A stretch of 64,000 nt of DNA from Bdellovibrionota bacterium (GTDB lineage: Bacteria; Bdellovibrionota_G; JALEGL01; DATDPG01): the NCBI GenBank assembly GCA_035292885.1, contig DATDPG010000019.1:59570-123569 (forward strand), in the 5' to 3' direction. Position numbers and translations under genes: made by a program. How positions within the stretch are numbered: position 1 is the stretch's first letter; the number at the start of each line of letters is the position of its first letter. This document shows, one piece after another, positions 5,876 through 38,365 of the stretch. A model generated the notes under the pieces. The model was not told where the DNA came from and made no database searches. It worked only from the letters and a program-made list of their open reading frames with translations.

Positions 5876-5983
5876 CGTATACCCAGAGATAGAATCCCGC
5901 TTCGGGCTCGGTATACTATGATCCCCATCATAGACGGATGACTGCAGCGCGTTAGAAAGAGAAATTCCTATAGGAGGTGTGAA

Positions 5984-6427: not shown

Positions 6428-6489
6428 CAAGGCTATTGCGGCATCCCTTCGACATGGGCCCAAGCGCCCTTGCCGAGGGGATATCGATA

Positions 6490-8175: not shown

Positions 8176-8220
8176 CTTCGATGCATTATACCCCCGCTTA
8201 AGACGGAGAGGATATCGTAC

Positions 8221-9974: not shown

Positions 9975-10421
9975 TCAGCGATTCGGAACGAGAAGAATCT
10001 CACCCGCGACATCGGAATCCAGCGCTAACGTCGTCTCGTCAATCTGTATAACGACGGACGGCCTGAGCTGTTTCAGTCGGAGTCGGGTCCCCGGAAGAAT
10101 GCCTAGGGAAGAGAGTTCATTGAGTCGCGTGGGATGACTCACTTGAAGCGCCGCGACTTCACCACATTGTCCGGGTTGCAGATCCAACAAGCGGGTCATG
10201 CCTCCTTCGCCGTTGATTCTTGGATGTTGGTGCGTTCCGAAAATGCGGCTCAGCCATCGCGCGGCGATCGATCGAGAGGGATCCGGAAATTCATAACCGC
10301 ACGTAGGACAGCGGATCAAGCCGCATTTTCCGGCAAACGGGCAGGCACACGTTTCCGCTTGCGGCGAGAACGCTTTGTTGCATAGAGGACAGCGAAGGGA
10401 AACTTCCGGTGTCAGAGCCAT
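9975..10421 (-). CDS. FeoA-domain protein with N-terminal Cys-rich zinc-ribbon-like segment
   Basis: C-terminal FeoA-like SH3 motif (MTRLLDLQPGQCGEVAALQ...GILPGTRLRLKQ). N-terminal CPLCNKAF...CACPFAGKCGLIRCPTCGYEF. Start chosen at MALTPEV to limit overlap with feoB; an upstream ATG at 10493 is possible. Confidence 0.55.
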   Translation of the reverse strand: MALTPEVSLRCPLCNKAFSPQAETCACPFAGKCGLIRCPTCGYEFPDPSRSIAARWLSRIFGTHQHPRINGEGGMTRLLDLQPGQCGEVAALQVSHPTRLNELSSLGILPGTRLRLKQLRPSVVIQIDETTLALDSDVAGEILLVPNR

Positions 10422-12624: not shown

Positions 12625-12975
12625 ATGAAATCGCTTGTTGTGGTTTTGGGTGTTCTTTTCGCGTCGAGTGCCATGGCGCAAGACAAACTCGCCTCGCAGA
12701 AGGCGTTGTTCGATAAGTATTGCAAGAAATGTCATGCCGAGGATGGGAGTGGGAAAAAGCCCACCGGTGAATGGCTGCCGGTCGTAAAGACGCTTAAATT
12801 GGAAAAGCCGGAAATGTTGAGCATCATCTCGGATGAAGCCAAGAAGAAGACGGACGACGACATCAAGAAAATGATCCTGGAAGGAAAAGACAAGATGAAG
12901 GCGACCAAAGCGACGCCGGAAGAGGCGATTGAACTGGTCGCATACGTTCGTCATTTGCAGGGCGGCACGAAGTAA
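12625..12975 (+). CDS. periplasmic monoheme class I cytochrome c
   Basis: Signal peptide, a single CKKCH motif, and an RBS (caggagg) upstream. Paralog of the gene at 45214..45588. Confidence 0.8.
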   Translation: MKSLVVVLGVLFASSAMAQDKLASQKALFDKYCKKCHAEDGSGKKPTGEWLPVVKTLKLEKPEMLSIISDEAKKKTDDDIKKMILEGKDKMKATKATPEEAIELVAYVRHLQGGTK

Positions 12976-13011: not shown

Positions 13012-13374
13012 TTAGAGGCCGTTTGTGCCGTGGCAACCGGCGCAGGCGGCCTCGCCCTGTGTGCGGACGATTTCCTGTATCGCGTCCAGATCGATCCCGG
13101 CAAGCGAACTCTGATTACTCTGGTGGATGTTCTTCGGAAGGTGGCACCCGAAGCAATCTGAACGCTGCCACCCCGGCTGATGCTCTTCTTCCGTGAGAAT
13201 CAACGACTGCGGCGAGTTAATAATGTCTCCATAATTTTCGCCCGGACTGTCATGACCGCAGCCGCTCATGAGGACCGCGAGGAAGAAAAGGATGTACGTT
13301 GGGCGGGTCAAAAGGAGATTCCTTTCTTCGTATGGCAATCCCGGCAAAACTGAATCTGATGGCACGAACCGCAC
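13012..13374 (-). CDS. small diheme c-type cytochrome, probable lipoprotein
   Basis: Two CxxCH motifs (CFGCH, CAGCH) and a hydrophobic segment ending LMSGC (lipobox-like). Start uncertain; it overlaps the 3' end of the upstream heptaheme gene. Confidence 0.5.
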   Translation of the reverse strand: MRFVPSDSVLPGLPYEERNLLLTRPTYILFFLAVLMSGCGHDSPGENYGDIINSPQSLILTEEEHQPGWQRSDCFGCHLPKNIHQSNQSSLAGIDLDAIQEIVRTQGEAACAGCHGTNGL

Positions 13375-13937
13375 GAATGAGGATTCGCCCGCGCTTCGAC
13401 GGAATGGACGTAAAGGAACGTGCGCGGATGGACGGTCTGAAGGATCGAATCACGCTGCATGTGGCAATCGACACAGCTCGATCGATCGTGGCACGTGGCG
13501 CAGGAAAACTCGTCCAATCGGGCGAAGACGGCGTGCCGCTGCGTCCAATCGAGACGATGGTCCGCCGGGATTAGCGGCCGGACATCCTTGTGACAGAGAA
13601 AACATCTTTGGGTGGCCTGCGCGGCCATCTCCGGTTTGCGATGACAGTCATGGCACTTCCATACCGGGCCGGCTTCGCTCGTTATTACGAGCGGTTTTAG
13701 GGCGTCGCGCTGCGGATGACAGCTCAAGCAATGGAGATTCTTCTCCTGAATTACAGGCGCATGAACGGCGTGGTTAAACAAAATGGATGGATGAACGGTT
13801 TGCTTGGGTGTGACCTGGCGCCAGTCCCCGGTGCGGACGCATCCGCCGATGATCGTAACGGCGATCGGCGCGATCCAGAAAAAATGTTGGCGTAGTTTAG
13901 AAATAAACATAACGAGCCGAGACTCCCACGCGAACAT
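13308..13937 (-). CDS. heptaheme c-type cytochrome, probable periplasmic lipoprotein (OmaB-like)
   Basis: Seven CxxCH motifs in about 200 aa. Signal with IIGGC lipobox. Repeated SCxxCH..SSCxxCH pattern shared with the nonaheme gene at 49190..49849. Confidence 0.75.
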   Translation of the reverse strand: MFAWESRLVMFISKLRQHFFWIAPIAVTIIGGCVRTGDWRQVTPKQTVHPSILFNHAVHAPVIQEKNLHCLSCHPQRDALKPLVITSEAGPVWKCHDCHRKPEMAAQATQRCFLCHKDVRPLIPADHRLDWTQRHAVFARLDEFSCATCHDRSSCVDCHMQRDSILQTVHPRTFLYVHSVEARANPHSCGSCHQIQFCRDCHTKKGISF

Positions 13938-15126
13938 CCGCCGTTTGATCGATGTTCGAATTGATTTCGCCGTTTACGCCGAGCTCAAGTCCCCATCGCC
14001 ATGCGTACAAGCATCCCAGGCCGGTGTGAAGAGCGTAATCTTCCGACCCGGTCACCTTGTCATATCGAGCGACGGCGAAAGATCCTCTGGCCCGCCATCC
14101 GAGCGAGATCTGTTTTTCGAGCGAGCTCGTGAATCCTCCGGATCGTCCGCCGTAACTATCCTGAAAGAATGCTCGGACGGAGGCGATCCAGGGGCGAACC
14201 CCCTCGATCCATTGAAACCCGCCATCCACCATATGGCCGTCCTCGGATCGGGTGGTCAGAACTTCATAACGTTGAAAACTGTACCCCGCCTGAACCGAAA
14301 GTTTCGAAGAGACTCGGTACGCCGCTGCACCTCTCCCTTGCCATTCCTCCCCCTGGGAAAAGAGCGTAAAAATCCGGTCCTGCCATTCGAAATTATCGCG
14401 GGATTCGTTGTATCGGGCGAACTCTCCGGAGAGGAGCAAGGCATCCATGGGGAAGAGTTCAAGTCCTGCACGACCTGATCCGAAAAGGGTTTTGTCCGCC
14501 AGGTAATCGATCGAACCATATAATAGAGGCGTCCAAAAAAACGGGAGCGCTTGTTTGGCTCCGGCCACGATCCATTGCCGGTGGACTGTCTCCAGATCGT
14601 CTTCATACCGATACCCCATCGTCAGTGTGGTCGAGGAGAACGGTTGCAGCGTCAGGTCGGCGCCGATCAACGTGGATTCTTCGTCGAAATCGGAAATTTC
14701 AGGATGCCTTCGCAAGCCGCCGAAGAGACGTCCCGATATTCGTCTCCGGGTACCCAGAGAAACTTGCGCGCCGTCGAGAAGGATCAGCGACTCGAACGGG
14801 TTCGCCAGAAATCTCCCCGCCTGGGCGTTCATTCCCCATTCGGGCCGATTCCACGAAACACTCGCTTGGTAAAGATCGGCCTTGTTGTCCGGATTTATCA
14901 GATTGGACAAAATCTGGCCGTCCATTGAAAATTCCCCTTGCAGCGGGGAAATTGGGGCGCTCAGGCGAAGGCGATTCACCCACGGGAGTTCCCGGTCTCC
15001 GATCAGATTTTCCCGGATCTGATTATACGATCTGAGTTCGACGGTCGGACCGGCCCAAGAGAGTGTTGGAGCAAGAATGACCATCCATCCCAGCGTCCGA
15101 TACACCCCTCGAAAAAGAAATGGCAT
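13897..15126 (-). CDS. outer-membrane beta-barrel protein, candidate porin of a porin-cytochrome conduit
   Basis: 409 aa. Signal peptide. Alternating beta-strand pattern. C-terminal aromatic YVYF. Located immediately upstream of the heptaheme cytochrome gene. Confidence 0.55.
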   Translation of the reverse strand: MPFLFRGVYRTLGWMVILAPTLSWAGPTVELRSYNQIRENLIGDRELPWVNRLRLSAPISPLQGEFSMDGQILSNLINPDNKADLYQASVSWNRPEWGMNAQAGRFLANPFESLILLDGAQVSLGTRRRISGRLFGGLRRHPEISDFDEESTLIGADLTLQPFSSTTLTMGYRYEDDLETVHRQWIVAGAKQALPFFWTPLLYGSIDYLADKTLFGSGRAGLELFPMDALLLSGEFARYNESRDNFEWQDRIFTLFSQGEEWQGRGAAAYRVSSKLSVQAGYSFQRYEVLTTRSEDGHMVDGGFQWIEGVRPWIASVRAFFQDSYGGRSGGFTSSLEKQISLGWRARGSFAVARYDKVTGSEDYALHTGLGCLYAWRWGLELGVNGEINSNIDQTADVRVGVSARYVYF

Positions 15127-15215
15127 ATGGATATTTTAGTGTTCGTCTCCCGAAGAATAAGAACCATGATATGCATCATGCCGGGATAATTCCCGTCAAG
15201 GGCATGATCAAAGAA

Positions 15216-16301
15216 ATGCGCGCTCGGCATCCATTGGGGTTGTGGAGTCTTATTTTCACGTTGCTGAGTGTTTCCCCGGCGCTGGCGGAAAAGGAGAAAC
15301 CTAAGAGCGGCTGTATCGCCGAGGGATGCCATGCCGTTCTCATGAACGCGAAAGTCGTGCATTCGGCGATCGAGGATGGCGCATGCGACGGATGCCATAC
15401 ACCTTCGGAGGGGAGCAGTCCCGACCAGGCGGGTGCCAAACATAAATTCGAGAAGATCGACGTCGGCCAGGCCTGCGGAGATTGCCATGAGGCCGCGAAA
15501 GACAAATCGATTCACAAGCCGTACGGCGAAGCGAAGTGCACCGCTTGCCACAATCCGCACTCGTCCGACCAGCCGGCTTTGTTGCGGGAAGAGTCGCCGG
15601 CACTTTGCCAGCCATGCCACGAAAAGATCGCCGCAATTTCCTCGCGAGGTTCGAGCGATCATCTGGTGGCCGACGGAAAACTCGCCTGCCTGAGCTGTCA
15701 CGAAGGTCACCTGTCGAAAATACCGAAACTTCTCCGAAAATCGCCGAAAGAACTCTGCTTGGGATGTCACAACAAGGAAATCTCGACACCTCAGGGAACT
15801 CTGGTCGATATCGCCGGTAAGCTCACCGACAAAAAAGCGACCGTCCATGACCCCGTCGCCGATGGGTGCGTCTCTTGCCATAATCCGCATGGGAGCGAAC
15901 TCCCGCGGCTCCTCGTCCGTTCGTATCCGACGGCCTGGTACGGCAATCCATCGATTTCTGCGTACGGCCTCTGTTTTGAGTGCCATGAAGCGGCCGGTTT
16001 TGAAGCCAAGGAGACCGAGGAGGGGACGGCGTTTCGAAACGGCAAGAAAAATCTCCATGCGGTCCACATCTTGAACGATCCGCTGGGCCGCTCCTGTTCC
16101 GCCTGCCACGACGTGCATGCGGCGGCGGGAGAGCACCTCATTCCGTCGCAAGTTCCCTTTTTCGGTTTCTTGGTTCCCACGAATTTCAAGACGGCGGAGA
16201 ACGGCGGCAGCTGTTTCCCGGGTTGCCATGAAGCGAGAGCCTACGATCGCTTGGAGGCTGTGCCTCTATCTAAGCCGGACTCGGGACACCCGAAACCTTA
16301 A
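15216..16301 (+). CDS. secreted multiheme c-type cytochrome (9 CxxCH plus CX3CH and CX4CH variants)
   Basis: Signal peptide MRARHPLGLWSLIFTLLSVSPALA. Nine canonical CxxCH motifs plus CFPGCH and CIAEGCH. Divergent from the porin gene. Confidence 0.75.
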   Translation: MRARHPLGLWSLIFTLLSVSPALAEKEKPKSGCIAEGCHAVLMNAKVVHSAIEDGACDGCHTPSEGSSPDQAGAKHKFEKIDVGQACGDCHEAAKDKSIHKPYGEAKCTACHNPHSSDQPALLREESPALCQPCHEKIAAISSRGSSDHLVADGKLACLSCHEGHLSKIPKLLRKSPKELCLGCHNKEISTPQGTLVDIAGKLTDKKATVHDPVADGCVSCHNPHGSELPRLLVRSYPTAWYGNPSISAYGLCFECHEAAGFEAKETEEGTAFRNGKKNLHAVHILNDPLGRSCSACHDVHAAAGEHLIPSQVPFFGFLVPTNFKTAENGGSCFPGCHEARAYDRLEAVPLSKPDSGHPKP

Positions 16302-16406: not shown

Positions 16407-16910
16407 TTGGAACCGAACGGAAGATGGCTTTTGTATGCGTGTTGTTGCGTAGGGTCGGCACTGATCGTCTCCGGATGTCAGAGCGGGAGCGGTCAGCCGA
16501 TTCAATACAATCATAAAGTTCACGTGGAAGAGGCGGGAATGGATTGCGTGTCGTGCCACGTCAACGTCCAGAGCGGCGCCCGCGCCACGATTCCGAACAT
16601 CGACGTATGCCAGGATTGCCATTCCGAGGAGCCTTCGGCGGATAAAACGGAACTGAAGAAGTTATTCTCTTATACTTCGTCGAATAAAAAGATTCCTTGG
16701 CGGAAGGTTTACCGTGTGGACGCGCATATCTTTTTTTCGCATCGAAGGCACGCGGTTCTCGGGAACATTTTGTGTGAAACATGTCACGGAAAGGTTGGGG
16801 AGAAAATGACTCCGGTGACCGGACGGGCCGTGGCCATCACGATGAAAGGTTGCATGGATTGCCATGAGAAGAGGGGGGTAGCTAATGACTGCCTTCTTTG
16901 TCACCGGTGA
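16407..16910 (+). CDS. pentaheme c-type cytochrome lipoprotein (ActA/QrcA/NrfB-like)
   Basis: Five CxxCH motifs. Lipobox IVSGC. TTG start inferred. First gene of the CISM-type module. Confidence 0.7.
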   Translation: MEPNGRWLLYACCCVGSALIVSGCQSGSGQPIQYNHKVHVEEAGMDCVSCHVNVQSGARATIPNIDVCQDCHSEEPSADKTELKKLFSYTSSNKKIPWRKVYRVDAHIFFSHRRHAVLGNILCETCHGKVGEKMTPVTGRAVAITMKGCMDCHEKRGVANDCLLCHR

Positions 16911-16939
16911 GGCGGAGCGGACAGGAGACCTGAAACGAC

Positions 16940-19444
16940 ATGGCGAATATTGACCGAAGAAAATTCCTGAAGATCCTCGGCGCGAGCGCGACTGGAACGG
17001 CGCTGGGGGGTACGGCAACGGGCGCCATGGCCTGGCTTTGGAAGGTCCCGGACCACCTAATTGAAGAAGCGTTGCGTGGACCCGGGTTCGAGACGTTCAA
17101 GAATTCCGTCTGTCAATTGTGCCCGGCGGGTTGCGGCATACGGGTCCGACTGATCGATAACATCCCCGTCCGGATCGACGGGAATCCGACACACCCGATC
17201 AATCGTGGAGGCATCTGCCCGCAGGGCGCGGCCGGCCTCGATTTTCTGTTCCATCCCGATCGGATTCAGACGCCGCTCATCCGTGTGGGGCCGAGGGGGA
17301 AGGGGGAATTCAAAGCGATCGGTTGGGACGAGGCGCTGGGCAAATTGGCTGAACGTTTGGGAACCCTACGACAGAAAAGAACCCCCGAGCAGCTGGCCTG
17401 CTTCGTTTACGAAAAACGCGGGTTGATGCACGAAACGATCGGTCGATTCATGGACGGATTCGGATCGCGAAATTTGATCGCAACGGACGACGGGGAGCAC
17501 GATTATCTGCCCTATCAGCTCCTCTTCGGCTGGAAGAACCTGCCGGCGTACGACATCGAGAATGCGCGCTACCTGCTGAGTTTCGGCGCGAACATTCTGG
17601 ACGACGGCGTTTCTCCGCTGCACGCGATTCACGGATACCGGAAAATGAGGGAAGGCGCCGCCGGGGAACGGGGAAAGTTTGTTTTCGTGGATTCCCGGCA
17701 TTCCGTGACCGCCGCCAGCGCGGATGTTTATCTGCCGATCCTGCCCGGAACCCACGGAGCGTTTGCGCTTGCCGTGGCGTATGTGTTGATCAAAGAACGG
17801 CATCTCGATACGGCGTTTCTCCGCGACCACGTCGACGGCTTTGAGTCCTGGACCGACGACCGGGGGAATCGTCACGCGGGCTTCAAGGACTATGTCCTCG
17901 CGGACTTCTATCCCGAACGCGCCGCGAAGATCACCGGAGTTCCCGCGGAGAGAATCATCGACGTGGCCCGGAACTTCGGAAGAACGCGCCTGTCGTTGGC
18001 AGTCGTGGGAAATTTGGGCACCGATACGACCAACGGCCTCTGGAACGCGCTCGCGGTTCTCTCGCTGAACGTTCTCGTCGGGAATATCGAAACCAAGGGG
18101 GGCCTTCTTGTTCCGCGGGCGGCACCGTTTTCAAAACTCCCGGTCGTTCGTCCGGATGAAATCGCGAAGCGAGGGCTGAACAAACCTCTCCTCTTCGAAG
18201 CCGAGAATCGCCAGGCTCCCTTGGTTTCCGACTCCATGGGCCTCGCGTGCGAACGGATGGCCAAAGGCGAACCGTATTCCATCGATACGCTCTTGGTCTA
18301 TGGCACCAACCCTGCGTTTGACCACCCGTACGCGAAGAGTGTTCGCAAAGCGCTCGAGAAGATTCCGTTCATCGTCTCGTTTTCGGGAATTCGGGACGAG
18401 ACTGCGGAATATGCCGATCTGATCCTCCCCGATCATGCGTTTCTCGAAAAATGGTTCGATAGTGCCGACACGCCCGGCATCAAGTTCGCTCACGCGTCGG
18501 TCGGTTCCCCGGTAGTGAATCCCCTTTATCAAACCCGGCACACGGGAGATGTCCTGACGGAAGTTGCGGCGAAGCTGGGAGGGAGTGTGGCCCAGGCATT
18601 TCCACAATCGGATTTCCTTTCGGCCTTGCAGCAAAAGTTCAAGGGGATTTTCGCTTCCGGCGAGGGAACCGTCGTATCGGGCTCGTTCGAGGAATCGTGG
18701 GCGCAGTTCCTTAAAGAGCGGGGCTGGCAGAACCTCGTCTACGAGTCCTTCGAAGGTTTCTGGAAGGTATTGGCGGAGCGCGGCGGGTGGTGGGATCCGA
18801 CGCAGGATGTGATGTCTATCAAAGAAGCGATTCAGACGCGCACGGGGAAAATTATGCTCCGGCTCGACGAGCTTCAATCCAAAGCAAGTGAAGCGGCACG
18901 ATCCGTGGGTAAGGAAAATACCTCCCCTGAAGCCGCAAGCCGGATACTGGCTGCCTGGGGAATTCGAGAAACCGCTGACGCCGCCTTTCTTCCACACTAC
19001 GAGGAGCCCACGTTCACGGGCGAAGTAAAAGAGTTCCCGTACGTGTTGGTCACGTTCGGCTTGCTTTCAAATCGCAGAGGTTTCGGCTCATTTTCGCCGT
19101 TGCTCCAGGAAATGTTTGGTTATCCCGAGCGGATTTACTGGGATTCTTGGGTGGAATTGAATCCCCATACGGCGCACGAGCATCATCTTGTTTCGGAAGA
19201 CTGGGTGAAAATCTCGTCGCCGGCGGGGTCGCTTCGCGCGCGGGTTGTTTTCAATGAAGCGTTGGAGCCCCATACGGTGGCCGTACCGTTCGGCATGGGT
19301 CATACGTCCGGCGGGCGTTACGCCAAGGGCGTGGGTGTGAATCCCTATGAGATTCTGACGGAAGTGAGCGACGTCTTGCGGGGAAAGCCGGCGAAAGTCG
19401 CGACGCGCGTGAAAATTGAGAAATCCGAAAGGAAGGTCCGCTAA
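16940..19444 (+). CDS. TAT-exported molybdopterin-oxidoreductase-family large subunit (PsrA/ActB1/QrcB-like)
   Basis: Twin-arginine signal DRRKFLKILGASATG. N-terminal CQLCPAGCGI...GGICPQG [4Fe-4S] motif. 834 aa of MopB fold. RBS acaggag. Confidence 0.85.
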   Translation: MANIDRRKFLKILGASATGTALGGTATGAMAWLWKVPDHLIEEALRGPGFETFKNSVCQLCPAGCGIRVRLIDNIPVRIDGNPTHPINRGGICPQGAAGLDFLFHPDRIQTPLIRVGPRGKGEFKAIGWDEALGKLAERLGTLRQKRTPEQLACFVYEKRGLMHETIGRFMDGFGSRNLIATDDGEHDYLPYQLLFGWKNLPAYDIENARYLLSFGANILDDGVSPLHAIHGYRKMREGAAGERGKFVFVDSRHSVTAASADVYLPILPGTHGAFALAVAYVLIKERHLDTAFLRDHVDGFESWTDDRGNRHAGFKDYVLADFYPERAAKITGVPAERIIDVARNFGRTRLSLAVVGNLGTDTTNGLWNALAVLSLNVLVGNIETKGGLLVPRAAPFSKLPVVRPDEIAKRGLNKPLLFEAENRQAPLVSDSMGLACERMAKGEPYSIDTLLVYGTNPAFDHPYAKSVRKALEKIPFIVSFSGIRDETAEYADLILPDHAFLEKWFDSADTPGIKFAHASVGSPVVNPLYQTRHTGDVLTEVAAKLGGSVAQAFPQSDFLSALQQKFKGIFASGEGTVVSGSFEESWAQFLKERGWQNLVYESFEGFWKVLAERGGWWDPTQDVMSIKEAIQTRTGKIMLRLDELQSKASEAARSVGKENTSPEAASRILAAWGIRETADAAFLPHYEEPTFTGEVKEFPYVLVTFGLLSNRRGFGSFSPLLQEMFGYPERIYWDSWVELNPHTAHEHHLVSEDWVKISSPAGSLRARVVFNEALEPHTVAVPFGMGHTSGGRYAKGVGVNPYEILTEVSDVLRGKPAKVATRVKIEKSERKVR

Positions 19445-20131
19445 ATGCCGCGATGGGGAATGGTGATCGATCTCGATAAGTGCACCGGCTGCGGCGCTTG
19501 CGTGGCCGGGTGCAAAGTGGAGAACAATGTCGCCGTCGGCTCGGCTGAACTCGGGCGGGAAAACCGAGCCATGTTCTGGATGGAGATGGTGAAGTTCGTG
19601 GAAGGGGAACACTATCCCGATGTGCGGATTCGGTACGTGCCGCGGCCTTGCTTTCAATGCGACAACCCACCGTGCACCCGTGTTTGTCCCGTCCGCGCGA
19701 CGTATCTCTCCGATGAGGGGATTGTGGCCCAAATCTACGCCCGCTGCATCGGATGTCGCTATTGCCAAGCGGCCTGCCCGTACACCGTCAAGTCTTTCAA
19801 CTGGTACGAGCCGAAGTGGAGCCAAGAACGGTCCAGTTGCTTGAATCCCGATGTGTCTCAGCGGCCGAAAGGGGTCGTGGAGAAGTGCACGTTTTGTCAC
19901 CACCGCCTGCAGGTGGCGCGGGAGAAAGCACGGGCCGAAAACCGATCTCTCCGCGAGGAGGATTACAAAGTGGCTTGCCAGGACGCCTGTCCGGCCGGAG
20001 CGATATTGTTCGGAGACTTGGAAGACAAGTCGACGCAGGTGTTCAAGCTCAGCAAGAGTCCGCGTGCCCAACGTCTCATGGAAGATCTCGGAACCGAGCC
20101 GAAGGTCTTCTACCTTTCGAGGGGAGGATGA
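19445..20131 (+). CDS. 4x[4Fe-4S] ferredoxin-type electron-transfer subunit (PsrB/NrfC/ActB2-like)
   Basis: Four Cys clusters (CTGCGACVAGC, CFQCDNPPC, CIGCRYCQAAC, CTFCHHR). The start abuts the MopB stop. Confidence 0.85.
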   Translation: MPRWGMVIDLDKCTGCGACVAGCKVENNVAVGSAELGRENRAMFWMEMVKFVEGEHYPDVRIRYVPRPCFQCDNPPCTRVCPVRATYLSDEGIVAQIYARCIGCRYCQAACPYTVKSFNWYEPKWSQERSSCLNPDVSQRPKGVVEKCTFCHHRLQVAREKARAENRSLREEDYKVACQDACPAGAILFGDLEDKSTQVFKLSKSPRAQRLMEDLGTEPKVFYLSRGG

Positions 20132-20132
20132 C

Positions 20133-21485
20133 ATGAAAGCCCGGCCGGAAGATCTGGGAGCGGAGGAACATCTCCTCAAACCGCTTCATCGGGTTTCCCC
20201 GAAGCTTCTCGTTCTTTGCGGCCTGCTTTTCCTGGCGGTTCTCAACATGCTCTTCGCCTTCGCGGGACAGGTTTGGTTCGGTCTCGGTGTCACCGGAATG
20301 AATCAGCCGGTGACGTGGGGTTTCTATATCGTCAACTTCGTCTTCTTCATCGGGATCAGCCACGCGGGGACGCTCATTTCCGCGATCCTGCGCTTGTCAC
20401 AGGCTGAATGGAGGCGGCCCATCACGCGAATGGCGGAAGTCATTACGGCCCTCGTTCTTGCGATCGGCGGTATCCAGCCGATCATCGATCTGGGAAGGCC
20501 GGACCGGGTCTTCAATATCTTTACGTCGGGCAGACTCCAGTCGCCGCTTTTGTGGGATGTGACGTCGATATCGGCCTATTTTATGGCCAGCACGGTCTTT
20601 CTCTATTTGCCCCTCATTCCGGATATCGCGCTTCTTCGGGACCGGGGAGGAAAGCTTCGCTGGGCCTACGACCTGATGTCCTGGGGATATCGCGGGACGG
20701 AACGCCAGAAGCACGTGCTGGAACGAGCCATGACGATCATGATGATCATTGTCATCCCGATCGCCGTATCCGTTCATACGGTGATCTCCTACATCTTCGC
20801 CATGACGATTCAGCCGGGGTGGCACAGCACGATCTTCGGCCCTTATTTCGTGTGCGGGGCGATCTTTTCCGGAATCGCGGCGCTCTTGATCGTCATGATC
20901 GCCTTTCGGAAGGCCTATCACCTGGAGGACTACTTAAAACCCATTCACTTCTCCTACCTGGGACAACTTCTTTTGATCATGTCGCTCCTCTGGTTTTACT
21001 TCACGTTTTCGGAATACCTTACGGCCTTCTTCGGGAACGAACCGCAGGAACTTCGTGTCGTGAATTATAAATTTACGGGGGCATACTGGCCGCTCTTCTG
21101 GGGGATGATCGTCGCGAACTTCGTCATTCCGGTGGCTCTTTTGAGTTCACCCAAAATCCGAACCATCCCGAACATCTTGGTGGCGTCGATCTGCGTGGTG
21201 ATCGGAATGTGGCTGGAGCGATTAAACATCGTGGTTCCGTCGCTCGCGAATCCGAGGCTCCCATACGCGACGGGCTTCTATATTCCCTCGTACACCGAAT
21301 GGTCCCTTTTCTTAGGGATGGCGGCGCTTTTCGTCTTGATGTTCATCGGCTTCTCCAAGTTTTTCCCGCTCATCTCGGTTTGGGAAATTCAGGAAGGGAG
21401 GACGCACGGCGTGAAAGAGGTGACCGAAAGGGTCGAGAGCTACCTTCCTCCGATGGCGCTCGAAGGAAAGGGGCGGGATTCATGA
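20133..21485 (+). CDS. NrfD/PsrC-family polytopic membrane quinol-interacting subunit (ActC-like)
   Basis: 450 aa with about 10 TM helices. NrfD-like. RBS gaggggagg. Start placed 2 nt after the FeS-subunit stop; ORF 19851..21485 is an upstream extension of this gene. Confidence 0.85.
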   Translation: MKARPEDLGAEEHLLKPLHRVSPKLLVLCGLLFLAVLNMLFAFAGQVWFGLGVTGMNQPVTWGFYIVNFVFFIGISHAGTLISAILRLSQAEWRRPITRMAEVITALVLAIGGIQPIIDLGRPDRVFNIFTSGRLQSPLLWDVTSISAYFMASTVFLYLPLIPDIALLRDRGGKLRWAYDLMSWGYRGTERQKHVLERAMTIMMIIVIPIAVSVHTVISYIFAMTIQPGWHSTIFGPYFVCGAIFSGIAALLIVMIAFRKAYHLEDYLKPIHFSYLGQLLLIMSLLWFYFTFSEYLTAFFGNEPQELRVVNYKFTGAYWPLFWGMIVANFVIPVALLSSPKIRTIPNILVASICVVIGMWLERLNIVVPSLANPRLPYATGFYIPSYTEWSLFLGMAALFVLMFIGFSKFFPLISVWEIQEGRTHGVKEVTERVESYLPPMALEGKGRDS

Positions 21486-21715
21486 CGAAAAAGAAAATTC
21501 TTTTTTTCAGCCAGCTCGTCTCTCTGGCGGGGATCTGGGTCTTCGTCTTGGGAATCAGCGTCTGGATTCTCCATCTCATCCGGATGGCCAACAAGCTTCA
21601 TGACGCTCCGACGGCGTCCGTATCGATCAGCCTGGTGGCCATTCCCGTCTTTCTCACAGGCGCGAGCGTGCTGACATATGTCTTCGTCGGCATACAGAGA
21701 GGTGGAAAGGAATAA
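21482..21715 (+). CDS. small two-TM membrane protein, translationally coupled (ActD-like position)
   Basis: ATGA overlap with the NrfD stop. 77 aa with two hydrophobic helices. Confidence 0.45.
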   Translation: MTKKKILFFSQLVSLAGIWVFVLGISVWILHLIRMANKLHDAPTASVSISLVAIPVFLTGASVLTYVFVGIQRGGKE

Positions 21716-21719
21716 TGCG

Positions 21720-22931
21720 ATGAACGGGCGGATTCCGATGGCCGTGTTCACCGTCGTTTTGGGCGCATCCTTCATGCTCGGCGGCTTCGCTCGGAGTGAG
21801 GAGGAGAATTGGCTTCCATCGGAGCCGCTCAAGGGGCGAGTTGTCTTCGAGCAAAAGCACTGCCCGCAGTGCCATTCGATCGGAGGCGCGAAAGGCGGGG
21901 TCGGTCCCGATTTAGCCGAAGCGGGAACGTATTTTCACGGGAGCTTTCTCCAGCTCTCATCCATTTTATGGAACCACATTCCGGACATGCTGGTGGAATA
22001 CAAAACGCGAAATCTTTCTTGGCCGAGTTTCTCCGAGGACGAGGTCGGCTATCTGATTTCCTATCTGTACTATCTGCGATACTTGGGAAGCCCGGGCGAT
22101 GTCGCCAACGGCCAGCGCCTCCTCCAGACGAAAGGGTGCGTCGCCTGTCATGCCGTCGGGAAACAAAAAAAGGCGGGGGACGCGCCTCCGCTGGATCAGC
22201 TCAAGAAATATGTTTCGCCGCTCTACCTGGTGCAGGCGGTTTGGAATCACGGGCCCCGGATGCAGCGGATGATCGAACAAAAGGGAATCAAGCGGCCGAC
22301 ATTCGACGGTCAGGAAATCAGCGACATGAGCGCGTACATCCGCAACGTAAGCCGCTGGAACACCGAGGAGAAAGTGTATCTCTCCCCGGGCGATCCGAAG
22401 AACGGAGAACGGGTGTTTGAAAGCAAGGGGTGCGTCAAGTGTCACTCCGAACAAAGGGGGAGGAAGCGGGCGCCGTCGCTGGAGAAGTCGAGCCTGAATG
22501 AGAGCGCGGCGGGCATCGCGGCGCTGATGTGGAACCATGCGGATGTCATGATGAGTTCGATGAAAGAGGAGAAAATCAGCTGGCCGACGTTCGAAGGGCG
22601 CGAGATGCCCGATCTGGTCGCATACCTGTTCTTTCTGGATTTTCTGGAACCGCCGGGAAACGCCGCAAAGGGCAAGGAGCTATTCGGCCAGAAACAATGT
22701 TCCTACTGTCATTCGATCCACGGAGCCGGGGGTACCATCGGACCCGATCTCGCGGTCGTCGGTTCTCTTTCCTCCACCCGGTCGATCCTCCGGATGATGG
22801 TGAATCACGCGGAAAACATGTCGGAAGCCGTCCTGGGCGCCGGGAAAGCCTGGCCGGTTCTGGGCGGTGACGAGATGAATAACATCTTCGCGTACTTAAA
22901 AAGCGTCGAACGGAAAGAAAAAAAGAAATAG
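21720..22931 (+). CDS. tetraheme cytochrome c built of four class-I cytochrome c domains
   Basis: Signal peptide. Four CxxCH motifs, each followed by GPDL and a distal MWNH motif (candidate Met ligand). RBS ggaaagg. Paralog of the gene at 37130..38365. Confidence 0.75.
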   Translation: MNGRIPMAVFTVVLGASFMLGGFARSEEENWLPSEPLKGRVVFEQKHCPQCHSIGGAKGGVGPDLAEAGTYFHGSFLQLSSILWNHIPDMLVEYKTRNLSWPSFSEDEVGYLISYLYYLRYLGSPGDVANGQRLLQTKGCVACHAVGKQKKAGDAPPLDQLKKYVSPLYLVQAVWNHGPRMQRMIEQKGIKRPTFDGQEISDMSAYIRNVSRWNTEEKVYLSPGDPKNGERVFESKGCVKCHSEQRGRKRAPSLEKSSLNESAAGIAALMWNHADVMMSSMKEEKISWPTFEGREMPDLVAYLFFLDFLEPPGNAAKGKELFGQKQCSYCHSIHGAGGTIGPDLAVVGSLSSTRSILRMMVNHAENMSEAVLGAGKAWPVLGGDEMNNIFAYLKSVERKEKKK

Positions 22932-22945: not shown

Positions 22946-23512
22946 CTACCTTCGCAATTTAGACAGAAGGGAGGCCAGTGTTCGAGCTTCCCCGGCGCCA
23001 TACCGGCGGGTCAATTTCTTCAGGAGCGGGAGATCCAGCTTTTCACGCGAGACCTCCAATACCCCTCGCACGTCATCCATATCTTTAGGTCCCCCGGCGA
23101 AGATTTTCATCGCAATAAAATCCTCCGCCCCAATGATCCGTATGTGGCCTCCCATAAAGGCGGCCTCCAGAGCTCTGGACAGAGCTCCCGCTTCCATCCC
23201 TCGAATTCCCAACAACAAATCCACTCGGTTTTCGTAGGCATCCGCAAGCATGAGTACCGCCGTCACCGGGTCATCGACATCTCCTTTACTCAATTCCACA
23301 AGAAAACCCGCCCGATGCATCTCCTTTTCAAGTTCAGGCAAGTCGCCTGATGGCAGCGAAATGACTACATCCGCGTCTTGGCTGGCGCGAACCAGACCAT
23401 GGAAAGCGGCAGCAATCGCACCCACCACGGCATACGGAATCTTCAAATGATTCAAGATGTCGACCGCGTCCAAGAGGAGCAGCGTGGATTGTCCAGGTCC
23501 CGTTGTCTTCAT
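22946..23512 (-). CDS. pol-beta-superfamily nucleotidyltransferase-fold protein (uncharacterised)
   Basis: AVVGAIAAAFHGLVRASQDADVVI fits the G[SG]...DxD NTase motif. 188 aa. Confidence 0.4.
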   Translation of the reverse strand: MKTTGPGQSTLLLLDAVDILNHLKIPYAVVGAIAAAFHGLVRASQDADVVISLPSGDLPELEKEMHRAGFLVELSKGDVDDPVTAVLMLADAYENRVDLLLGIRGMEAGALSRALEAAFMGGHIRIIGAEDFIAMKIFAGGPKDMDDVRGVLEVSREKLDLPLLKKLTRRYGAGEARTLASLLSKLRR

Positions 23513-23691
23513 GGAAATCGATCTCGCTCTGCCTTTCGGTTAGAGCGAAAGGACTTCCCGATCCTGTGGATCTCCATCACAAGACGGGAATGTTCCGCAT
23601 AGGCGATCAGGCGCTGCTCCGGCGACATACGCCGGGCACTTTCGATAAGCTTTCGCCGCATCCGTTCGCCGAGTCTGGATCTCTTTTTCAC
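23509..23691 (-). CDS. small basic hypothetical protein upstream of the NTase gene
   Basis: 60-aa ORF abutting the NTase start. No recognisable motif. Confidence 0.2.
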   Translation of the reverse strand: MKKRSRLGERMRRKLIESARRMSPEQRLIAYAEHSRLVMEIHRIGKSFRSNRKAERDRFP

Positions 23692-23835: not shown

Positions 23836-25218
23836 TCAGTCGCCGACCTCGCACTCCTGGAGGCTCCATGCGGGAAGCGAAGAATTACTTTCCTTGCCGA
23901 TCGACCGAAGCCTATAAAGGACGTCGCTCACCTGGACGACCTCGTATCCCCTGTAGTCCCAGCCCATCCGGCAGCGGGAATCTCCCGGGCATGTCATCCA
24001 TTCGGCGCAGCCGCCTTCGGGATCTCTCCTGTAGCATTCCGGGTGAGGACGCATCAACGGACATTGGTAGTCTCCGCTCAAACCGACCTTGGTCTCGAGG
24101 CATCCGTCCCAATTGGGATCGCCACCAAAAGCCTGAGTATCGTACGTTGGGGAAGAGGAGTAGTTGTTCGTATACGTCCCCGGGTTGAATGTGACTTTCG
24201 CGGTGTAACCCAACGCGTGGGTGGTTTGGCATTCAACGACGTCCGGTTTGCAGTTCTTGTCCATGCCATTGCCAAAAACATCCGGAGCCGTGGAATAGAC
24301 CGTCGGATCGTCGTCCTTGCAGTCGGTTCCCCCCGAAGTCATGTTCGCCTCTCCGTCTCCATCGTTATCCGCGTTGGTCGGATCGGTCAGCGGCTGCGTT
24401 GTCACCTCCTCGTAATCGGTCCGGCCGTCGCGATCCGTGTCTTTCGCCAAAGGGTCGGTCCTATAGGTGTGGACTTCCACGCCGTCATGAAGTCCGTCCC
24501 CATCCGTGTCGACGGACGCCGGGTCGGTTCCATAGGTCGACTCTTCGGGATCGCTCAGACCGTCGCCGTCCGAATCCGGGGGGCCGTACAAAAATCCACC
24601 TTCGAGGACGGACGAGCAACCGTCGGGATTTGCAGCCACAACATCCACCTTGCACGTGCCGGCACAGACGTGGTCTAGGCTTGGGACCGCTACGCCGATC
24701 GTCGAGTGGCTTACGGTCCCCTCGTACCTTGCTCGTTCGCCGCCGATGGAAACGATGGCCGAACCAGCTAAATCGACCACAAAATTTTCCCCCGATACAT
24801 CGACGTGCGTGTCCATCCTTCCGGAATTTGGAGTTAATGCCGTAATTTTCGGACGGGTCGTGCAGAGGGTCGCTCGCGTGTATGTGAAAGCATCAAAAAA
24901 ATCAGCCTTCCGCCCCTGAGCGTCGACCAAGGACACATCGACGGCTCCGACACTGTCACCGGCCGGCACCTGGACTTCAATCGCCGAGTCTTCGGCATGC
25001 AGGATCGCCGCCTCTCTTGAGGCGAAAAGAACCTTGCGAACCTCCCCGAAGCCCTTCCCGAGGATGGTGACCACCGATCCGCCTTCCCCCGAACCGGGCT
25101 CAATTCCAAGAAACGTCACGCTTTGCTGGAAGGACGTTGTTTCGCCATCGGGAGATGAACAGAAACAAAGCAAGAGACAGAGGGGGGCTACCCCAGCGAT
25201 CAGGTTCGGCTTCCGCAT
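23836..25218 (-). CDS. cell-surface lipoprotein with IPT/TIG-like domains, TSP3-type Ca-binding repeats and a Cys-rich metal-binding-like motif
   Basis: Signal plus Cys lipobox. Repeated DxDxDGxxDxxE motifs (DSDGDGLSDPEE, DTDGDGLHDGVE, DTDRDGRTDYEE, DNDGDGEANMTS). GTDCKDDDPTVY...NGMDKNC. Confidence 0.6.
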   Translation of the reverse strand: MRKPNLIAGVAPLCLLLCFCSSPDGETTSFQQSVTFLGIEPGSGEGGSVVTILGKGFGEVRKVLFASREAAILHAEDSAIEVQVPAGDSVGAVDVSLVDAQGRKADFFDAFTYTRATLCTTRPKITALTPNSGRMDTHVDVSGENFVVDLAGSAIVSIGGERARYEGTVSHSTIGVAVPSLDHVCAGTCKVDVVAANPDGCSSVLEGGFLYGPPDSDGDGLSDPEESTYGTDPASVDTDGDGLHDGVEVHTYRTDPLAKDTDRDGRTDYEEVTTQPLTDPTNADNDGDGEANMTSGGTDCKDDDPTVYSTAPDVFGNGMDKNCKPDVVECQTTHALGYTAKVTFNPGTYTNNYSSSPTYDTQAFGGDPNWDGCLETKVGLSGDYQCPLMRPHPECYRRDPEGGCAEWMTCPGDSRCRMGWDYRGYEVVQVSDVLYRLRSIGKESNSSLPAWSLQECEVGD

Positions 25219-25497
25219 GTCAGTCTTTGCTTAAAGGGAACCCCCTTTGTTTCAGCTGCTACGATCCACCGACGACAGGTTTGTTGTATCCCCATACCTT
25301 CTCCGGGGGCCAATGCAGCAACCGGTGTGCCAGGTATATATTATGTTGGAAGTTTAAGAAGTTACGTAAAATCGTTCGTCAAAAGGCCGCAAAGTTTGAA
25401 TGAAGTTCTGCGCTGCTTGGGCAGAATGTCGGCGACGAACGTTGCGTTATCCAAGGCACGTAGCAATCGGCTTCACACACTCTTATAGTTCACGACG

Positions 25498-26427: not shown

Positions 26428-28017
26428 GTGAAGCGTTCGGCCCAGGTCGTTCAACCGGTACCGCCTTCTGGGGAGGTGGGGCGGGAGTATCCGGGCTTAT
26501 ACGAAGAACTCGACCAGCTGCGACGAAAGCGGTTGACGCTGGTGGCTACCGTCGGCGCGTTGATGTGCCTCACGATTCAAGTGATCAACTTCTGGACCCA
26601 AGCCGGCCCGCGGATCTATCCGCGGATGGAACCGGAGATCCTCGATCGGGCCACACTGCTCTTTCACGCCGCTTCGTTTCTTTCAGCCGCTTTCCTGTTT
26701 CGAATTCGTTCGCTTCAGACACAGACGGTTCTCGCTCTCGATCTCCTCTTGTTTGGGTTGAACATTCTCGCTCGATCCCTTGCGACGATCTGCATCGTTG
26801 AAACGGGCGATCATTTTCCGGGAATCGAGGGTATTTCCCTTGCGGTGATTTTGCATGGGGTATTCGTTCCGACCGGTATCACGATACCGATTGTGCTCGG
26901 CGCCTTGGCCACGATCTCCTTCCCGTTGGCCCAAATCGCGGGTTTACACTGGTTCGACTCGATCGCCGCACATTGGCAACAAGTAAGTGGGGCGGAGCCG
27001 TTTGCGTTCTTGCTTACTTTGAACACGCTTACGATCGCCTTTTTCGCCTTTCTCGGCGTTCTGGCCAACCGCGTTTTTTACGGCCTCGCCCGGGACGCCT
27101 ACCGCGCCAAACAGCTTGGGAATTATCTCATTGAAGGGGAACTCGGTTCGGGCGGGATGGGAAAAATTTTGATCGGACGGCATCGTCTGATGCGCCGGCC
27201 GACGGCGATCAAAGTTTTGCGGGCCGAGTTTTTGGGCGGGCCGGAAGCCTTGGCTCGTTTCGAGCGCGAAGTCGAACTGGCGTCAAAGCTTACGCATCCC
27301 AACACAATCGCCATATATGATTTCGGACGTTCGGCCGACGGAACCTTTTACTACGCCATGGAAATGCTCAAGGGGTTAAACCTCCAGGAACTCGTGGATC
27401 AATACGGTCCTCTTCCCTCGCCGCGGGCCGTGCATATCGTAAAGCAAATTTGCGGATCGCTGGCGGAAGCGCATTCGATGGGTGTCGTCCATCGCGACAT
27501 TAAACCGAGCAATATTTTTCTCACGCAGCGCGGAGGTCTGGACGACTTCGTCAAAGTCATCGATTTCGGTTTGGCCAAACAGGTCGCCACGCCCGACGTG
27601 CCGGGTGAGGGCCTTACGGAGGCCGGGCGTCTGTTCGGCACGCCGCATTTTATGGCGCCGGAGACGGCATACGGAGCCGATCGAGCGAGTCCTCAGTCCG
27701 ATATCTACAGCCTGGGCGCGGTCGCTTATTGGCTTGTAACCGGAAAGCGGCTCTTCGACGGCACTCCGGCGGAAATATTGGCCGCGCATGTGAAGACGGT
27801 ACCGAAGCCGCCTTCAAAAGTTTCAGAGGTTCAGATTCCGGCCTCACTCGAACAGACGATACTTACCTGCCTAAAGAAAAAACCGGAGGAGCGACACAAA
27901 TCGGCGATGGAAATCTTCACCGCGCTGGACGGCATCGAAGGGACATCACGTTGGTCAAACGCACAAGCGAGAGAGTGGTGGGAGATCCACCATCCGGGTC
28001 TGTTCACGCATCTTTGA
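26428..28017 (+). CDS. Ser/Thr protein kinase with N-terminal polytopic membrane domain
   Basis: About 230 aa of N-terminal TM helices, then a canonical Hanks kinase (GSGGMGKI, AIKVL, HRDIKPSN, DFGLAK, GTPHFMAPE). GTG start. Confidence 0.8.
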   Translation: MKRSAQVVQPVPPSGEVGREYPGLYEELDQLRRKRLTLVATVGALMCLTIQVINFWTQAGPRIYPRMEPEILDRATLLFHAASFLSAAFLFRIRSLQTQTVLALDLLLFGLNILARSLATICIVETGDHFPGIEGISLAVILHGVFVPTGITIPIVLGALATISFPLAQIAGLHWFDSIAAHWQQVSGAEPFAFLLTLNTLTIAFFAFLGVLANRVFYGLARDAYRAKQLGNYLIEGELGSGGMGKILIGRHRLMRRPTAIKVLRAEFLGGPEALARFEREVELASKLTHPNTIAIYDFGRSADGTFYYAMEMLKGLNLQELVDQYGPLPSPRAVHIVKQICGSLAEAHSMGVVHRDIKPSNIFLTQRGGLDDFVKVIDFGLAKQVATPDVPGEGLTEAGRLFGTPHFMAPETAYGADRASPQSDIYSLGAVAYWLVTGKRLFDGTPAEILAAHVKTVPKPPSKVSEVQIPASLEQTILTCLKKKPEERHKSAMEIFTALDGIEGTSRWSNAQAREWWEIHHPGLFTHL

Positions 28018-37129: not shown

Positions 37130-38365
37130 CTACGGTAAGTGCTTCGCATTCGGACTCGCCGGAGCCAGGCTCGTCAGAAACGCATAGAGATCCGCCATCT
37201 CCCGGCCCGTCAGTTTGGGCCACTTCAAGTGTTGCTCGGTATGCTTCTCTTGCATCTCGGTGGAGTGGTTCCACATCGCCGCGACCATGCCCATGGGGGA
37301 GTTCAATTTGCTGATGGCGGCGAAATCTTTCGCCGCGTTTCGTCCCTTGCCGTTTAAGGAGTGGCACGTCAGGCATTCTCGGTCCCTAACGAGATTCTCC
37401 CCTGTGGCGGGGCTCCCCGGTGCGTCCTCCAGTTTCATGCTGTAGAGATACGCGATGACGTGCGCCATCTCCCCCTCCTTGAAATCCGGGAACGTGAGTT
37501 TCTTTTCTTTCATCATCTCCCACATGGCGGGGCCGTGATTCCACATCTTGGCCGCGATCTCGGTCACGGGATAGTTGAAATCGACCTCAGCGAAATCGGG
37601 CGCCGTGGTTGGTGGTTTGGCACGGAACGAATGGCAATGCATGCACCCTTTTTCGGTCAAGAGTTCCTTCCCCTTTGAGGGATCGCCGAGGTCATAGTCG
37701 CTGGCCGGGAAGACGGTCGGGGCCATATACGAACGGATTCCGGCGGCCAGGGCGTCCATCTCGTCCTCTTCGATGACGGGCCGATCGATCTTGTACTTCT
37801 CAAAAAGCGCCAGCATTTTCGGGCCATGGTTCCACATCGCTTCCGCCAGTCGGATGGGGGAGATGTATTCCTTTTTCGCGCTGATGTCGGGAGCGATTCG
37901 GGCGCCTTCCCCTCCAAATTGATGACAAGAGAAGCATCCCTTTTCCTTCAGCACCTTTCTTCCCATCGATTCCCTCACCGGTTCCGCCATGTACCGGATG
38001 AAAGAGAGATAGCGAACCAGCTCGGACATCTCCTTCGGCGTGAACTTCGGAAAGGCATACCCTTTGGTCTCGATCTTCTTCGCCATTCTCGGAAGGTGAT
38101 TCCACATGACGGAAGAAAGCTCGAGGTATGTACCGTAAAACTTGCGGTTGCCCAGGTCGGGACCGCCGCGGCCCCCCCTCCCGTACACGGAATGGCACTG
38201 CGCGCATCCCTTCTGATGGAAGACTTCCCGACCCGGCCACGGTGAGGCCGAAGTGGCTGCTTCCTGCGCCCGAAGGGCGAAAATGGAGCCGGATGACATC
38301 AGGAGATACGCGAGAATGAATTGCAGGAGGCGGATGCAGTTTCTCCGGGTAGTGGACATAGTCAC
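37130..38365 (-). CDS. tetraheme cytochrome c of four class-I domains (paralog of 21720..22931)
   Basis: Signal peptide. Four CxxCH motifs, each with a GPD and a downstream MWNH motif. Confidence 0.75.
   Translation of the reverse strand: MTMSTTRRNCIRLLQFILAYLLMSSGSIFALRAQEAATSASPWPGREVFHQKGCAQCHSVYGRGGRGGPDLGNRKFYGTYLELSSVMWNHLPRMAKKIETKGYAFPKFTPKEMSELVRYLSFIRYMAEPVRESMGRKVLKEKGCFSCHQFGGEGARIAPDISAKKEYISPIRLAEAMWNHGPKMLALFEKYKIDRPVIEEDEMDALAAGIRSYMAPTVFPASDYDLGDPSKGKELLTEKGCMHCHSFRAKPPTTAPDFAEVDFNYPVTEIAAKMWNHGPAMWEMMKEKKLTFPDFKEGEMAHVIAYLYSMKLEDAPGSPATGENLVRDRECLTCHSLNGKGRNAAKDFAAISKLNSPMGMVAAMWNHSTEMQEKHTEQHLKWPKLTGREMADLYAFLTSLAPASPNAKHLP

Follow-up and report, generated by a model that had tools for sequence, protein, structure and literature searches.

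Alternative complex III (ACIII) and the quinone reductase complex (Qrc), the two examples studied so far of a molybdoenzyme scaffold converted into a machine for electron transfer between quinones and cytochromes, have NrfD subunits whose way of coupling this transfer to proton movement is still debated. The QrcB subunit has been described as lacking redox cofactors (PMC13059093), and the B1 domain of ActB from Rhodothermus marinus holds no prosthetic groups (PMC5928083). Clusters resembling ACIII are also mentioned in several genome papers: genomes of the candidate phylum MBNT15 contain an "ACIII-like (2)" cluster (cluster 4), composed of ActABCD and an ActE-like protein with four haems (PMC9386147), Nitrospirales carry actAB1B2CDE, with a split ActB and without ActF/G (PMC12342949), and iron oxidisers carry actAB1B2CDEF, in which ActB is also split and ActB1 has the motif CX2CX3CX27C (PMC4643136). 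We analyzed a stretch of 64,000 nucleotides from a Bdellovibrionota bacterium (assembly GCA_035292885.1, contig DATDPG010000019.1, positions 59,570 to 123,569), hereafter the window, in which six genes at 16407-22931 on the plus strand probably encode a six-subunit respiratory membrane complex of the ACIII lineage, a distinct and uncharacterised subtype. The observations concern subunit homologies, the status of cofactor motifs, site conservation, gene linkage and gene fusions.

The layout of the locus was obtained from a listing of open reading frames (ORFs) and by counting haem motifs. The first gene (16407..16910) encodes an ActA-like pentahaem cytochrome c of 167 aa, a predicted lipoprotein with a TTG start, the lipobox VSGC and five CXXCH motifs. 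It is followed by the gene of the MopB-family subunit (B1, 16940..19444; 834 aa), which has an N-terminal DRRKFLK twin-arginine motif and the Pfam domains Molybdop_Fe4S4, Molybdopterin and Molydop_binding, and by the gene of a four-cluster, ActB2-like ferredoxin subunit (B2, 19445..20131; 228 aa) with 16 cluster cysteines and without a signal peptide. An ActC-type membrane subunit (20133..21485; 450 aa, Pfam NrfD), a small membrane subunit with two hydrophobic helices (21482..21715; 77 aa) and a secreted tetrahaem cytochrome c (21720..22931; four CXXCH, Pfam Cytochrom_C with an E-value of 1.5e-30) complete the set. The last gene has an alternative start at 21678; its start is most likely the ATG at 21720, directly past the stop of the small gene, and both the query and its relatives begin with a Sec-type signal that is cleavable. 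All six genes are co-directional and tightly packed, and since they overlap or are separated by 1-29 nt, they look like a single operon. Scans for promoters, terminators and sigma-54 sites around it gave nothing above chance. The original prediction, made from the sequence of the window, had described these six genes in this order and with ActB split into two genes, and both points were confirmed.

The membrane subunit is of the ActC type. Its best match in the PDB is R. marinus ActC (6f0k_C, 4.2e-73), the ActC chains of four ACIII structures match at 4e-73 to 7e-65 (those other than 6f0k_C at 1e-71 to 1e-65), ActF chains match weakly (1e-12 or weaker), and the NCBIfam model of QrcD gives 39 bits against a cut-off of 570. 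When the list of R. marinus ActC residues (PMC5928083) was mapped onto the query by alignment, 19 of the 20 proton half-channel residues were identical (14/14 on the N side, 5/6 on the P side) and most of the quinol pocket was kept (W82, I86, F89, P136, L166, D169, S245, H247). The charged triad of ActC, His139/Asp169/Asp253, is reduced in the query to Asp169: position 139 is Asp in 55/55 members of the family, and position 253 is hydrophobic (Ile, Val or Leu in the family, Ile in the query). Calisto and Pereira reported His at position 139, and a triad more than 95% conserved, in 521 ActC sequences; an Asp at the equivalent position is found in QrcD, DsrP, HybB, NhcC, PsrC of Wolinella succinogenes and others (PMC8076601). 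The motifs DLGRPDR and SPLLWDV are common to the query and to the NrfD subunits of relatives of the polysulfide reductase (Psr) type whose MopB subunit has a Mo-ligand Cys. A second NrfD, ActF, was found neither in the window (tblastn) nor behind the operon in related loci, in line with the absence that had been predicted.

The ferredoxin subunit aligns with the B2 domain at the C-terminus of ActB (6f0k_B, residues 797-1024) with an E-value of 1.3e-58, and its top NCBIfam model is QrcC (306 bits, cut-off 400). All 16 cluster cysteines are invariant in 63 sequences, and the third group reads CIGCRYC as compared with CIGTRYC in R. marinus ActB. Because all 16 cysteines are present and CIGCRYC replaces CIGTRYC, the subunit lacks the [3Fe-4S] signature, and its clusters would all be of the [4Fe-4S] type. 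The Tyr that lies between two of the Cys ligating the proximal B2 cluster (CRYC) is conserved, and its equivalent is essential in QrcC (PMC13059093). Export of the ferredoxin subunit presumably takes place together with MopB, through the twin-arginine translocation (TAT) system. The pentahaem protein finds only ActA chains in the PDB (8k9e_A at 2.9e-21, 6lod_A, 6f0k_A and 6btm_A; from 3e-21 to 7e-17), its top NCBIfam model is QrcA (94.9 bits, cut-off 180), and a homologue with five haems stands before MopB in nearly all related loci. The description of this protein as a lipoprotein holds for the query and its closest relatives, where the lipobox is found; most relatives carry an N-terminal hydrophobic helix instead. 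The matches of these three subunits agree with the predicted membership in an ACIII/Qrc/Psr-like branch of the family of complex iron-sulfur molybdoenzymes (CISM).

The largest subunit, MopB, has as best PDB matches the arsenate reductase (Arr) subunit ArrA (4.6e-66, over the full length) and Thermus PsrA (7.5e-44), with ActB far behind (1.4e-17). Its sequence is found unchanged in a database entry from a Bdellovibrionota MAG (metagenome-assembled genome). Its top NCBIfam model is QrcB, with 320 bits against a cut-off of 440; the model of PhsA, of thiosulfate reductase (Phs), gives 267 bits (cut-off 694) and that of ArrA 247 (cut-off 1600). The original prediction had left it undecided whether MopB is cofactor-less or a true Mo enzyme. 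An inspection of the Mo-ligand residues had been suggested along with it, and for this purpose MopB was aligned with 117 homologues, ArrA, PsrA and a formate dehydrogenase (Fdh). In pairwise alignment, the query (IATDDGEHDY) has a gap where ArrA (SSVCAEAHK) and PsrA (SLCTAP) carry their Mo-coordinating Cys. In all 44 closest sequences the ligand loop is three residues shorter and without Cys, and the ligand column varies (E, D, S, G, T, R and others). The clade has Q, H, L, M or V in place of the Lys/Arg that follows the fourth Cys of the FS0 cluster (CP[KR]G; CPQG in the query), a residue that links FS0 to the pterin. More distant homologues retain SSIC[AS]DG together with CPKG. Within the clade the motif of the FS0 [4Fe-4S] cluster, CX2CX3CX27C, is invariant, and the subunit probably still binds this cluster.

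The degeneration resembles that of QrcB. Out of 81 columns identical in ArrA, PsrA and the Cys-bearing clade, the query clade retains 51 and QrcB controls retain 49, and both have lost the same key sites: the ligand Cys and the Ser preceding it, the Asp of PGTD, H281 and R358. MopB is also the least conserved subunit, with a median identity to the query of 40% vs 69% for NrfD and 64% for the ferredoxin. We conclude that the MopB subunit is, as far as its sequence indicates, a non-catalytic scaffold that has lost the Mo-ligand site, like QrcB and ActB1. A standard Psr, Phs or Arr reductase is rejected because the loop with the Mo-ligand Cys and the Lys/Arg after FS0 are absent, so that the catalytic residues of PsrA/PhsA are not intact; the NCBIfam cut-offs of PhsA and ArrA are missed as well. 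The two Cys-bearing relatives that were inspected lie in plain MopB-FeS-NrfD operons, with neither an ActA-like pentahaem protein nor a trailing cytochrome in the operon itself; one of them, at locus L007, includes a gene for a TorD-type chaperone, and this locus also holds a separate cluster with a fused ActB and an ActA on the opposite strand. In a rough neighbour-joining tree (identity distances, midpoint root, partial reference sequences), used as a hint only, the query clade groups with Lys-retaining relatives and not with QrcB or a fused ActB, which hints that the Mo site may have been lost independently in this clade.

In a sister group of MopB proteins (P0076, P0118 and P0052; loci L084, at 2946-8910, L083 and L008) CPKG is retained, and a G-C-[ED] loop close to the ligand position contains a Cys. 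Their genes are nevertheless preceded by a gene for an ActA-like pentahaem protein, and at L084 the genes after MopB encode FeS, NrfD and two monohaem cytochromes, while the small subunit and the tetrahaem protein are absent. The group may represent cytochrome-wired Mo-binding enzymes or a different ACIII-like variant.

The small subunit of 77 aa is strongly conserved in 53 sequences (Q..S...IW, AIP.F, LTYVF.GL). Positive residues at both ends indicate a hairpin with both termini inside, which would be the topology of ActD; no acidic residue is present in its second transmembrane helix. A phmmer search of the PDB gave no match at E<=10, and an exhaustive search of 1.84 billion representative proteins found only 53 relatives, none of ActD length, so that homology with ActD is unsupported. 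Four longer proteins are chimeras. Two of them are N-terminal fusions to a cytochrome c part: P0252 (477 aa) joins a 77-aa-type N-terminus to a cytochrome c with four CXXCH, and P0280 (445 aa) joins it to a similar multihaem part with five. The other two, P0268 and P0283 (177 and 187 aa), have the C-terminus of NrfD followed by the 77-aa part and are possibly partial gene calls. An ActD-ActE fusion is known in the canonical ACIII of Ignavibacterium album (PMC3362086). In a subset of Ignavibacteria and Bacteroidota the genes of the small subunit and of the tetrahaem protein have been relocated as a pair to the front of the operon. Because of the fusions and the pairwise relocation, the small subunit is likely the anchor that docks the tetrahaem cytochrome on the membrane arm.

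The tetrahaem cytochrome consists, as predicted, of four class-I domains, each with a CXXCH followed about 35-40 residues later by WNH-x3-M on a helix. The label MWNH given to this repeat was too strict, since the variants are LWNH, VWNH, MWNH and MVNH. The WNH His, like the Met that comes four residues after it, is invariant or almost invariant in the family, which has more than 1000 unnamed members. The AlphaFold2 model (pLDDT 85, pTM 0.82) gave no match at E<=0.001 in a Foldseek search of the PDB, with similarity to cytochrome c at the level of single domains only. Among the best 60 of 132 profile matches only generic class-I cytochromes were found (c555, CcoP, QcrC, NorC) and ActE was not among them; on this basis homology with ActE was set aside. 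Cytochromes c555, CcoP, QcrC and NorC are His/Met cytochromes, and in Aquifex c555 the Met ligand sits on an extra helix; by analogy, Met as the sixth ligand of the tetrahaem haems would fit. A paralogue (37130..38365, minus strand, four CXXCH) is unlinked to the operon, and the relationship noticed earlier is borne out by 35% identity over 391 aa (E 8e-90); an exact-sequence look-up of this protein returned no record, and it is probably called elsewhere with a different start. In many related loci a second tetrahaem copy adjoins the module.

A pattern scan of species-representative genomes gave 74 loci, all in metagenome-assembled genomes (MAGs). All six proteins are present at 48 of them, with an NrfD identity of 62-82% across conserved loci, and because the same six proteins stand together at 48 independent loci the arrangement is not due to chance. 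Among the phyla represented at the 74 loci are Krumholzibacteria, Ignavibacteria, Bacteroidota, KSB1, Calditrichota, Thermodesulfovibrionia, Deferrimicrobiaceae, Zixibacteria and Acidobacteria. In a Pfam scan of 117 neighbouring ORFs from related loci we counted 20 multihaem cytochromes, nine cytochromes b and five FixO proteins of cbb3 oxidase, together with 9-10 sigma-54 response regulators and seven histidine kinases; in several loci a pair of sigma-54 activator and kinase lies upstream of the module.

The architecture itself is not new. The Deferrimicrobiaceae loci L045, L047, L048, L053 and others have the same six genes, and loci of this type also show the counter-oriented FeS/NrfD operons mentioned in the MBNT15 paper (PMC9386147). 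The proposal of a novel variant was in this respect overstated, as the ActF-less actAB1B2CDE is already described for Nitrospirales (PMC12342949). The complex has thus been remarked on in genome papers on MBNT15 and Nitrospirales, and is biochemically uncharacterised. The portions of the MBNT15, Nitrospirales and iron-oxidiser papers at hand remain at the level of annotation: the status of the cofactor site, the altered quinol site, the missing [3Fe-4S] signature and the fusions of small subunit and tetrahaem protein were not found in them, and they appear not to contain the residue-level picture given here.

It is from these observations that the binding of cofactors, the contacts between subunits, the direction of electron flow and the coupling to protons are inferred. 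The net reaction slightly favoured by the evidence is a proton-coupled oxidoreduction of (mena)quinol and cytochrome c, with quinol as the donor, and electron flow is possibly reversible. We favour oxidation of quinol on account of the orthology with ActC, ActA and B2, of the partner being a class-I cytochrome and of the cbb3 genes that are occasionally found nearby. Quinol or quinone would be bound at a periplasmic (P-side) site of the NrfD subunit, beside the proximal B2 cluster, and would exchange electrons with this nearest [4Fe-4S] cluster. From there electrons could travel along the five haems of the ActA-like cytochrome, which is anchored to the membrane, and reach the four haems of the class-I cytochrome c, which would be kept on the complex by the two-helix protein of 77 aa. 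The remaining B2 clusters and FS0 would form a side branch into the MopB pseudo-enzyme, with FS0 at the end of the chain, and the conserved half-channels of NrfD would couple the reaction to proton movement. The output may be a periplasmic cytochrome network, with an adjacent porin-cytochrome conduit and oxidases encoded elsewhere.

Several points weigh against this reading. The cofactor assignments are drawn from motifs, the axial ligand of the tetrahaem haems may be either the WNH His or the Met four residues later, and the 77-aa protein has no detectable similarity to ActD. Moreover, MopB keeps 51/81 of the Mo-enzyme columns, and a pterin could conceivably be bound without a protein ligand. 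Three features also set the query apart from the characterised ACIII that oxidise quinol and recall low-potential or quinone-reducing NrfD complexes: the ferredoxin has all 16 Cys and so no [3Fe-4S] cluster, Asp stands in place of His139 as in QrcD, DsrP and HybB (PMC8076601), and Qrc models are the best NCBIfam matches of three subunits.

A rival reading is that the same complex works in reverse, as a Qrc-like cytochrome c:menaquinone reductase that passes electrons from periplasmic cytochromes to the quinone pool; we regard this as possible rather than likely. The electrons could come from Fe(II) or another extracellular donor by way of the neighbouring porin-cytochrome system, or from the oxidation of H2 or formate. 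This reading would suit the fact that the A, B and C subunits each have a Qrc model as their best NCBIfam match, the degeneration of MopB along the same path as QrcB, the all-[4Fe-4S] ferredoxin and the Asp at the quinone-site position of transmembrane helix 2 (TMH2), shared with QrcD, HybB and NhcC (PMC8076601); FeoAB and the porin-cytochrome-like cluster lie directly upstream, and a cluster resembling ACIII was proposed to serve in iron oxidisers (PMC4643136). However, all four Qrc cut-offs are failed, the NrfD subunit being ActC/DsrP-like (QrcD 39/570 bits), and FixO/cbb3 genes adjoin the module in some loci. The class-I relatives of the tetrahaem cytochrome are moreover usually of high potential, which would make flow to menaquinone uphill.

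A more speculative form of the ACIII-lineage reading is that the family survives as an intermediate linking ACIII with molybdoenzymes of the Psr/Arr type, that its loss of the Mo site was independent of the losses in QrcB and ActB1, and that a single NrfD serves as proton-translocating module, with the five-cluster FeS branch to FS0 as a second functional entry or exit of electrons. We hold this as a rather doubtful conjecture; if true, the complex would link two different partners in the periplasm with the quinone pool.

It is very unlikely that MopB is a working Mo/W-bisPGD (bis-pyranopterin guanine dinucleotide) enzyme with an unusual Asp or Glu ligand, as part of a cytochrome-wired reductase or oxidase of the Psr/Arr type. 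ArrA and PsrA are indeed far closer solved relatives than ActB, the four domains of MopB are all retained, as are the TAT signal, FS0 and the 51 reference columns, and D or E occupies the ligand column in the nearest subclade. Against this, across the clade as a whole no ligand residue is conserved in the shortened loop, the Lys/Arg after FS0 is lost, the Asp of PGTD, H281 and R358 have disappeared exactly as in cofactor-free QrcB, the operon lacks a TorD-like chaperone, unlike that of L007, and the scores of PhsA and ArrA are far under their cut-offs. Finally, a decaying remnant of a CISM operon, which the degenerate catalytic site of the largest subunit might suggest, can practically be dismissed in view of six intact frames, invariant cofactor motifs and conservation of the set at 48 loci in many phyla with high NrfD identity.

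The genomic surroundings are rich in cytochromes. The operon is immediately preceded by a DmsE/MtrA-like multihaem cytochrome (15120-16301, plus strand; nine CXXCH, one CX3CH and one CX4CH), which is divergent from a predicted outer-membrane barrel of 409 aa that ends in ...YVYF (13897-15126, minus strand); with a 7-haem lipoprotein (13308-13937, minus) and a 2-haem lipoprotein (13012-13374, minus) they form a porin-cytochrome-like cluster at 13012-16301. DmsE-like cytochromes adjoin the module also in the Acidobacteria and Deferrimicrobiaceae loci L071, L047, L062 and L063. Just upstream of the cytochrome cluster are a monohaem class-I cytochrome c of 116 aa (12625-12975, plus) and the ferrous-iron transport genes feoB (10412-12463, minus) and feoA (9975-10493, minus). 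A second respiratory island occupies 39552-49984 on the minus strand, with a multihaem cytochrome (39552-40916), a cytochrome b (40790-41941), a Rieske protein (41856-42308), a CbcL-like protein in which multihaem c and cytochrome b561 are fused (43237-45168), a multihaem protein of 1180 aa with a PKD domain (45720-49262) and a c7-like cytochrome (49190-49984); at locus L001 the same set immediately adjoins the module.

Directly downstream of the operon, a DUF6036 nucleotidyltransferase-like protein (22946-23512, minus) and a 60-aa ORF overlapping its start (23509-23691, minus) have a layout reminiscent of a toxin-antitoxin pair. The single perfect sigma-54 -24/-12 consensus of the window (TGGCACACCGGTTGCT) is at 25317-25332 on the minus strand, about 100 nt upstream of a gene for a TIG/TSP3-repeat protein (23836-25218, minus), and none precedes the act-like operon. 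Three Ser/Thr protein kinase genes (6490-8175, 26428-28017 and 30270-31850) are present in the 64 kb, one of which has a PilZ-like match in the record of locus L004. A TLC/MFS-type transporter (28004-30256, minus), an outer-membrane protein of the alginate-export family (500-1861, minus) and an NnrS-family haem-copper membrane protein (2357-3553, plus), of a family often tied to NO or denitrification stress, were also found.

The interest of the family lies in the combination of features that it unites: the proton-pathway set of ActC with a single NrfD and no ActF, a Psr/Qrc-like Asp quinone site, an all-[4Fe-4S] ferredoxin and the FS0 motif. It is a natural minimal version in which to test which features of ACIII are needed for coupling. 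The complex is widespread in uncultured phyla and often adjoins multihaem cytochromes and cytochrome b complexes, and knowing the direction of electron flow would alter metabolic reconstructions of metal-cycling and microaerobic MAGs.

Among known complexes, the query shares with ACIII (R. marinus 6F0K, Flavobacterium johnsoniae 6BTM, Roseiflexus 6LOD, Chloroflexus 8K9E) the pentahaem ActA, a MopB-like domain with a four-cluster ferredoxin module, the half-channel residues and most quinol-pocket residues of ActC, a two-helix protein and then a c-type cytochrome after ActC, and a peripheral arm that would be periplasmic and TAT-exported. It differs in several respects. B1 and B2 are separate genes, whereas ActB of ACIII is fused; the FS0 Cys motif is present, in contrast to R. 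marinus B1, which contains no prosthetic group (PMC5928083); and B2 has 16 Cys in place of one [3Fe-4S] and three [4Fe-4S] clusters. In the membrane arm His139 and Asp253 of ActC are replaced by Asp and Ile, ActF is absent from the operon, and the protein in the position of ActD has 77 aa and lacks both the cytoplasmic beta-sheet domain and the conserved membrane Glu of ActD. A secreted tetrahaem cytochrome stands in place of the monohaem ActE. The clusters of iron oxidisers (PMC4643136) keep ActF and a monohaem ActE, unlike the query operon.

With Qrc the query has in common separate multihaem, MopB-like, FeS and NrfD subunits, a MopB with the FS0 motif that lacks Mo ligand and Lys/Arg and is degenerate in the same columns, and the Asp in TMH2. 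Its NrfD subunit is however of the ActC type and not of the QrcD type, and two subunits, the 77-aa protein and the tetrahaem cytochrome, are added; Qrc is moreover a complex of sulfate reducers, and nothing in the window marks the host as one. A bona fide Qrc is rejected, as the query fails all four NCBIfam cut-offs, a failure that is informative because the Desulfobacterota control loci L075 and L056 pass all four. The enzymes of the Psr/Phs/Arr group (PsrABC 2VPZ, ArrAB 6CZ7) are the closest solved sequence relatives of MopB and have in common with the query the TAT signal, FS0, the split into A, B and C subunits and an all-[4Fe-4S] ferredoxin. The query differs from them in that, besides further conserved positions, it has lost the Mo-ligand Cys and the Lys/Arg that follows FS0, and in having added cytochrome subunits and a small membrane protein.

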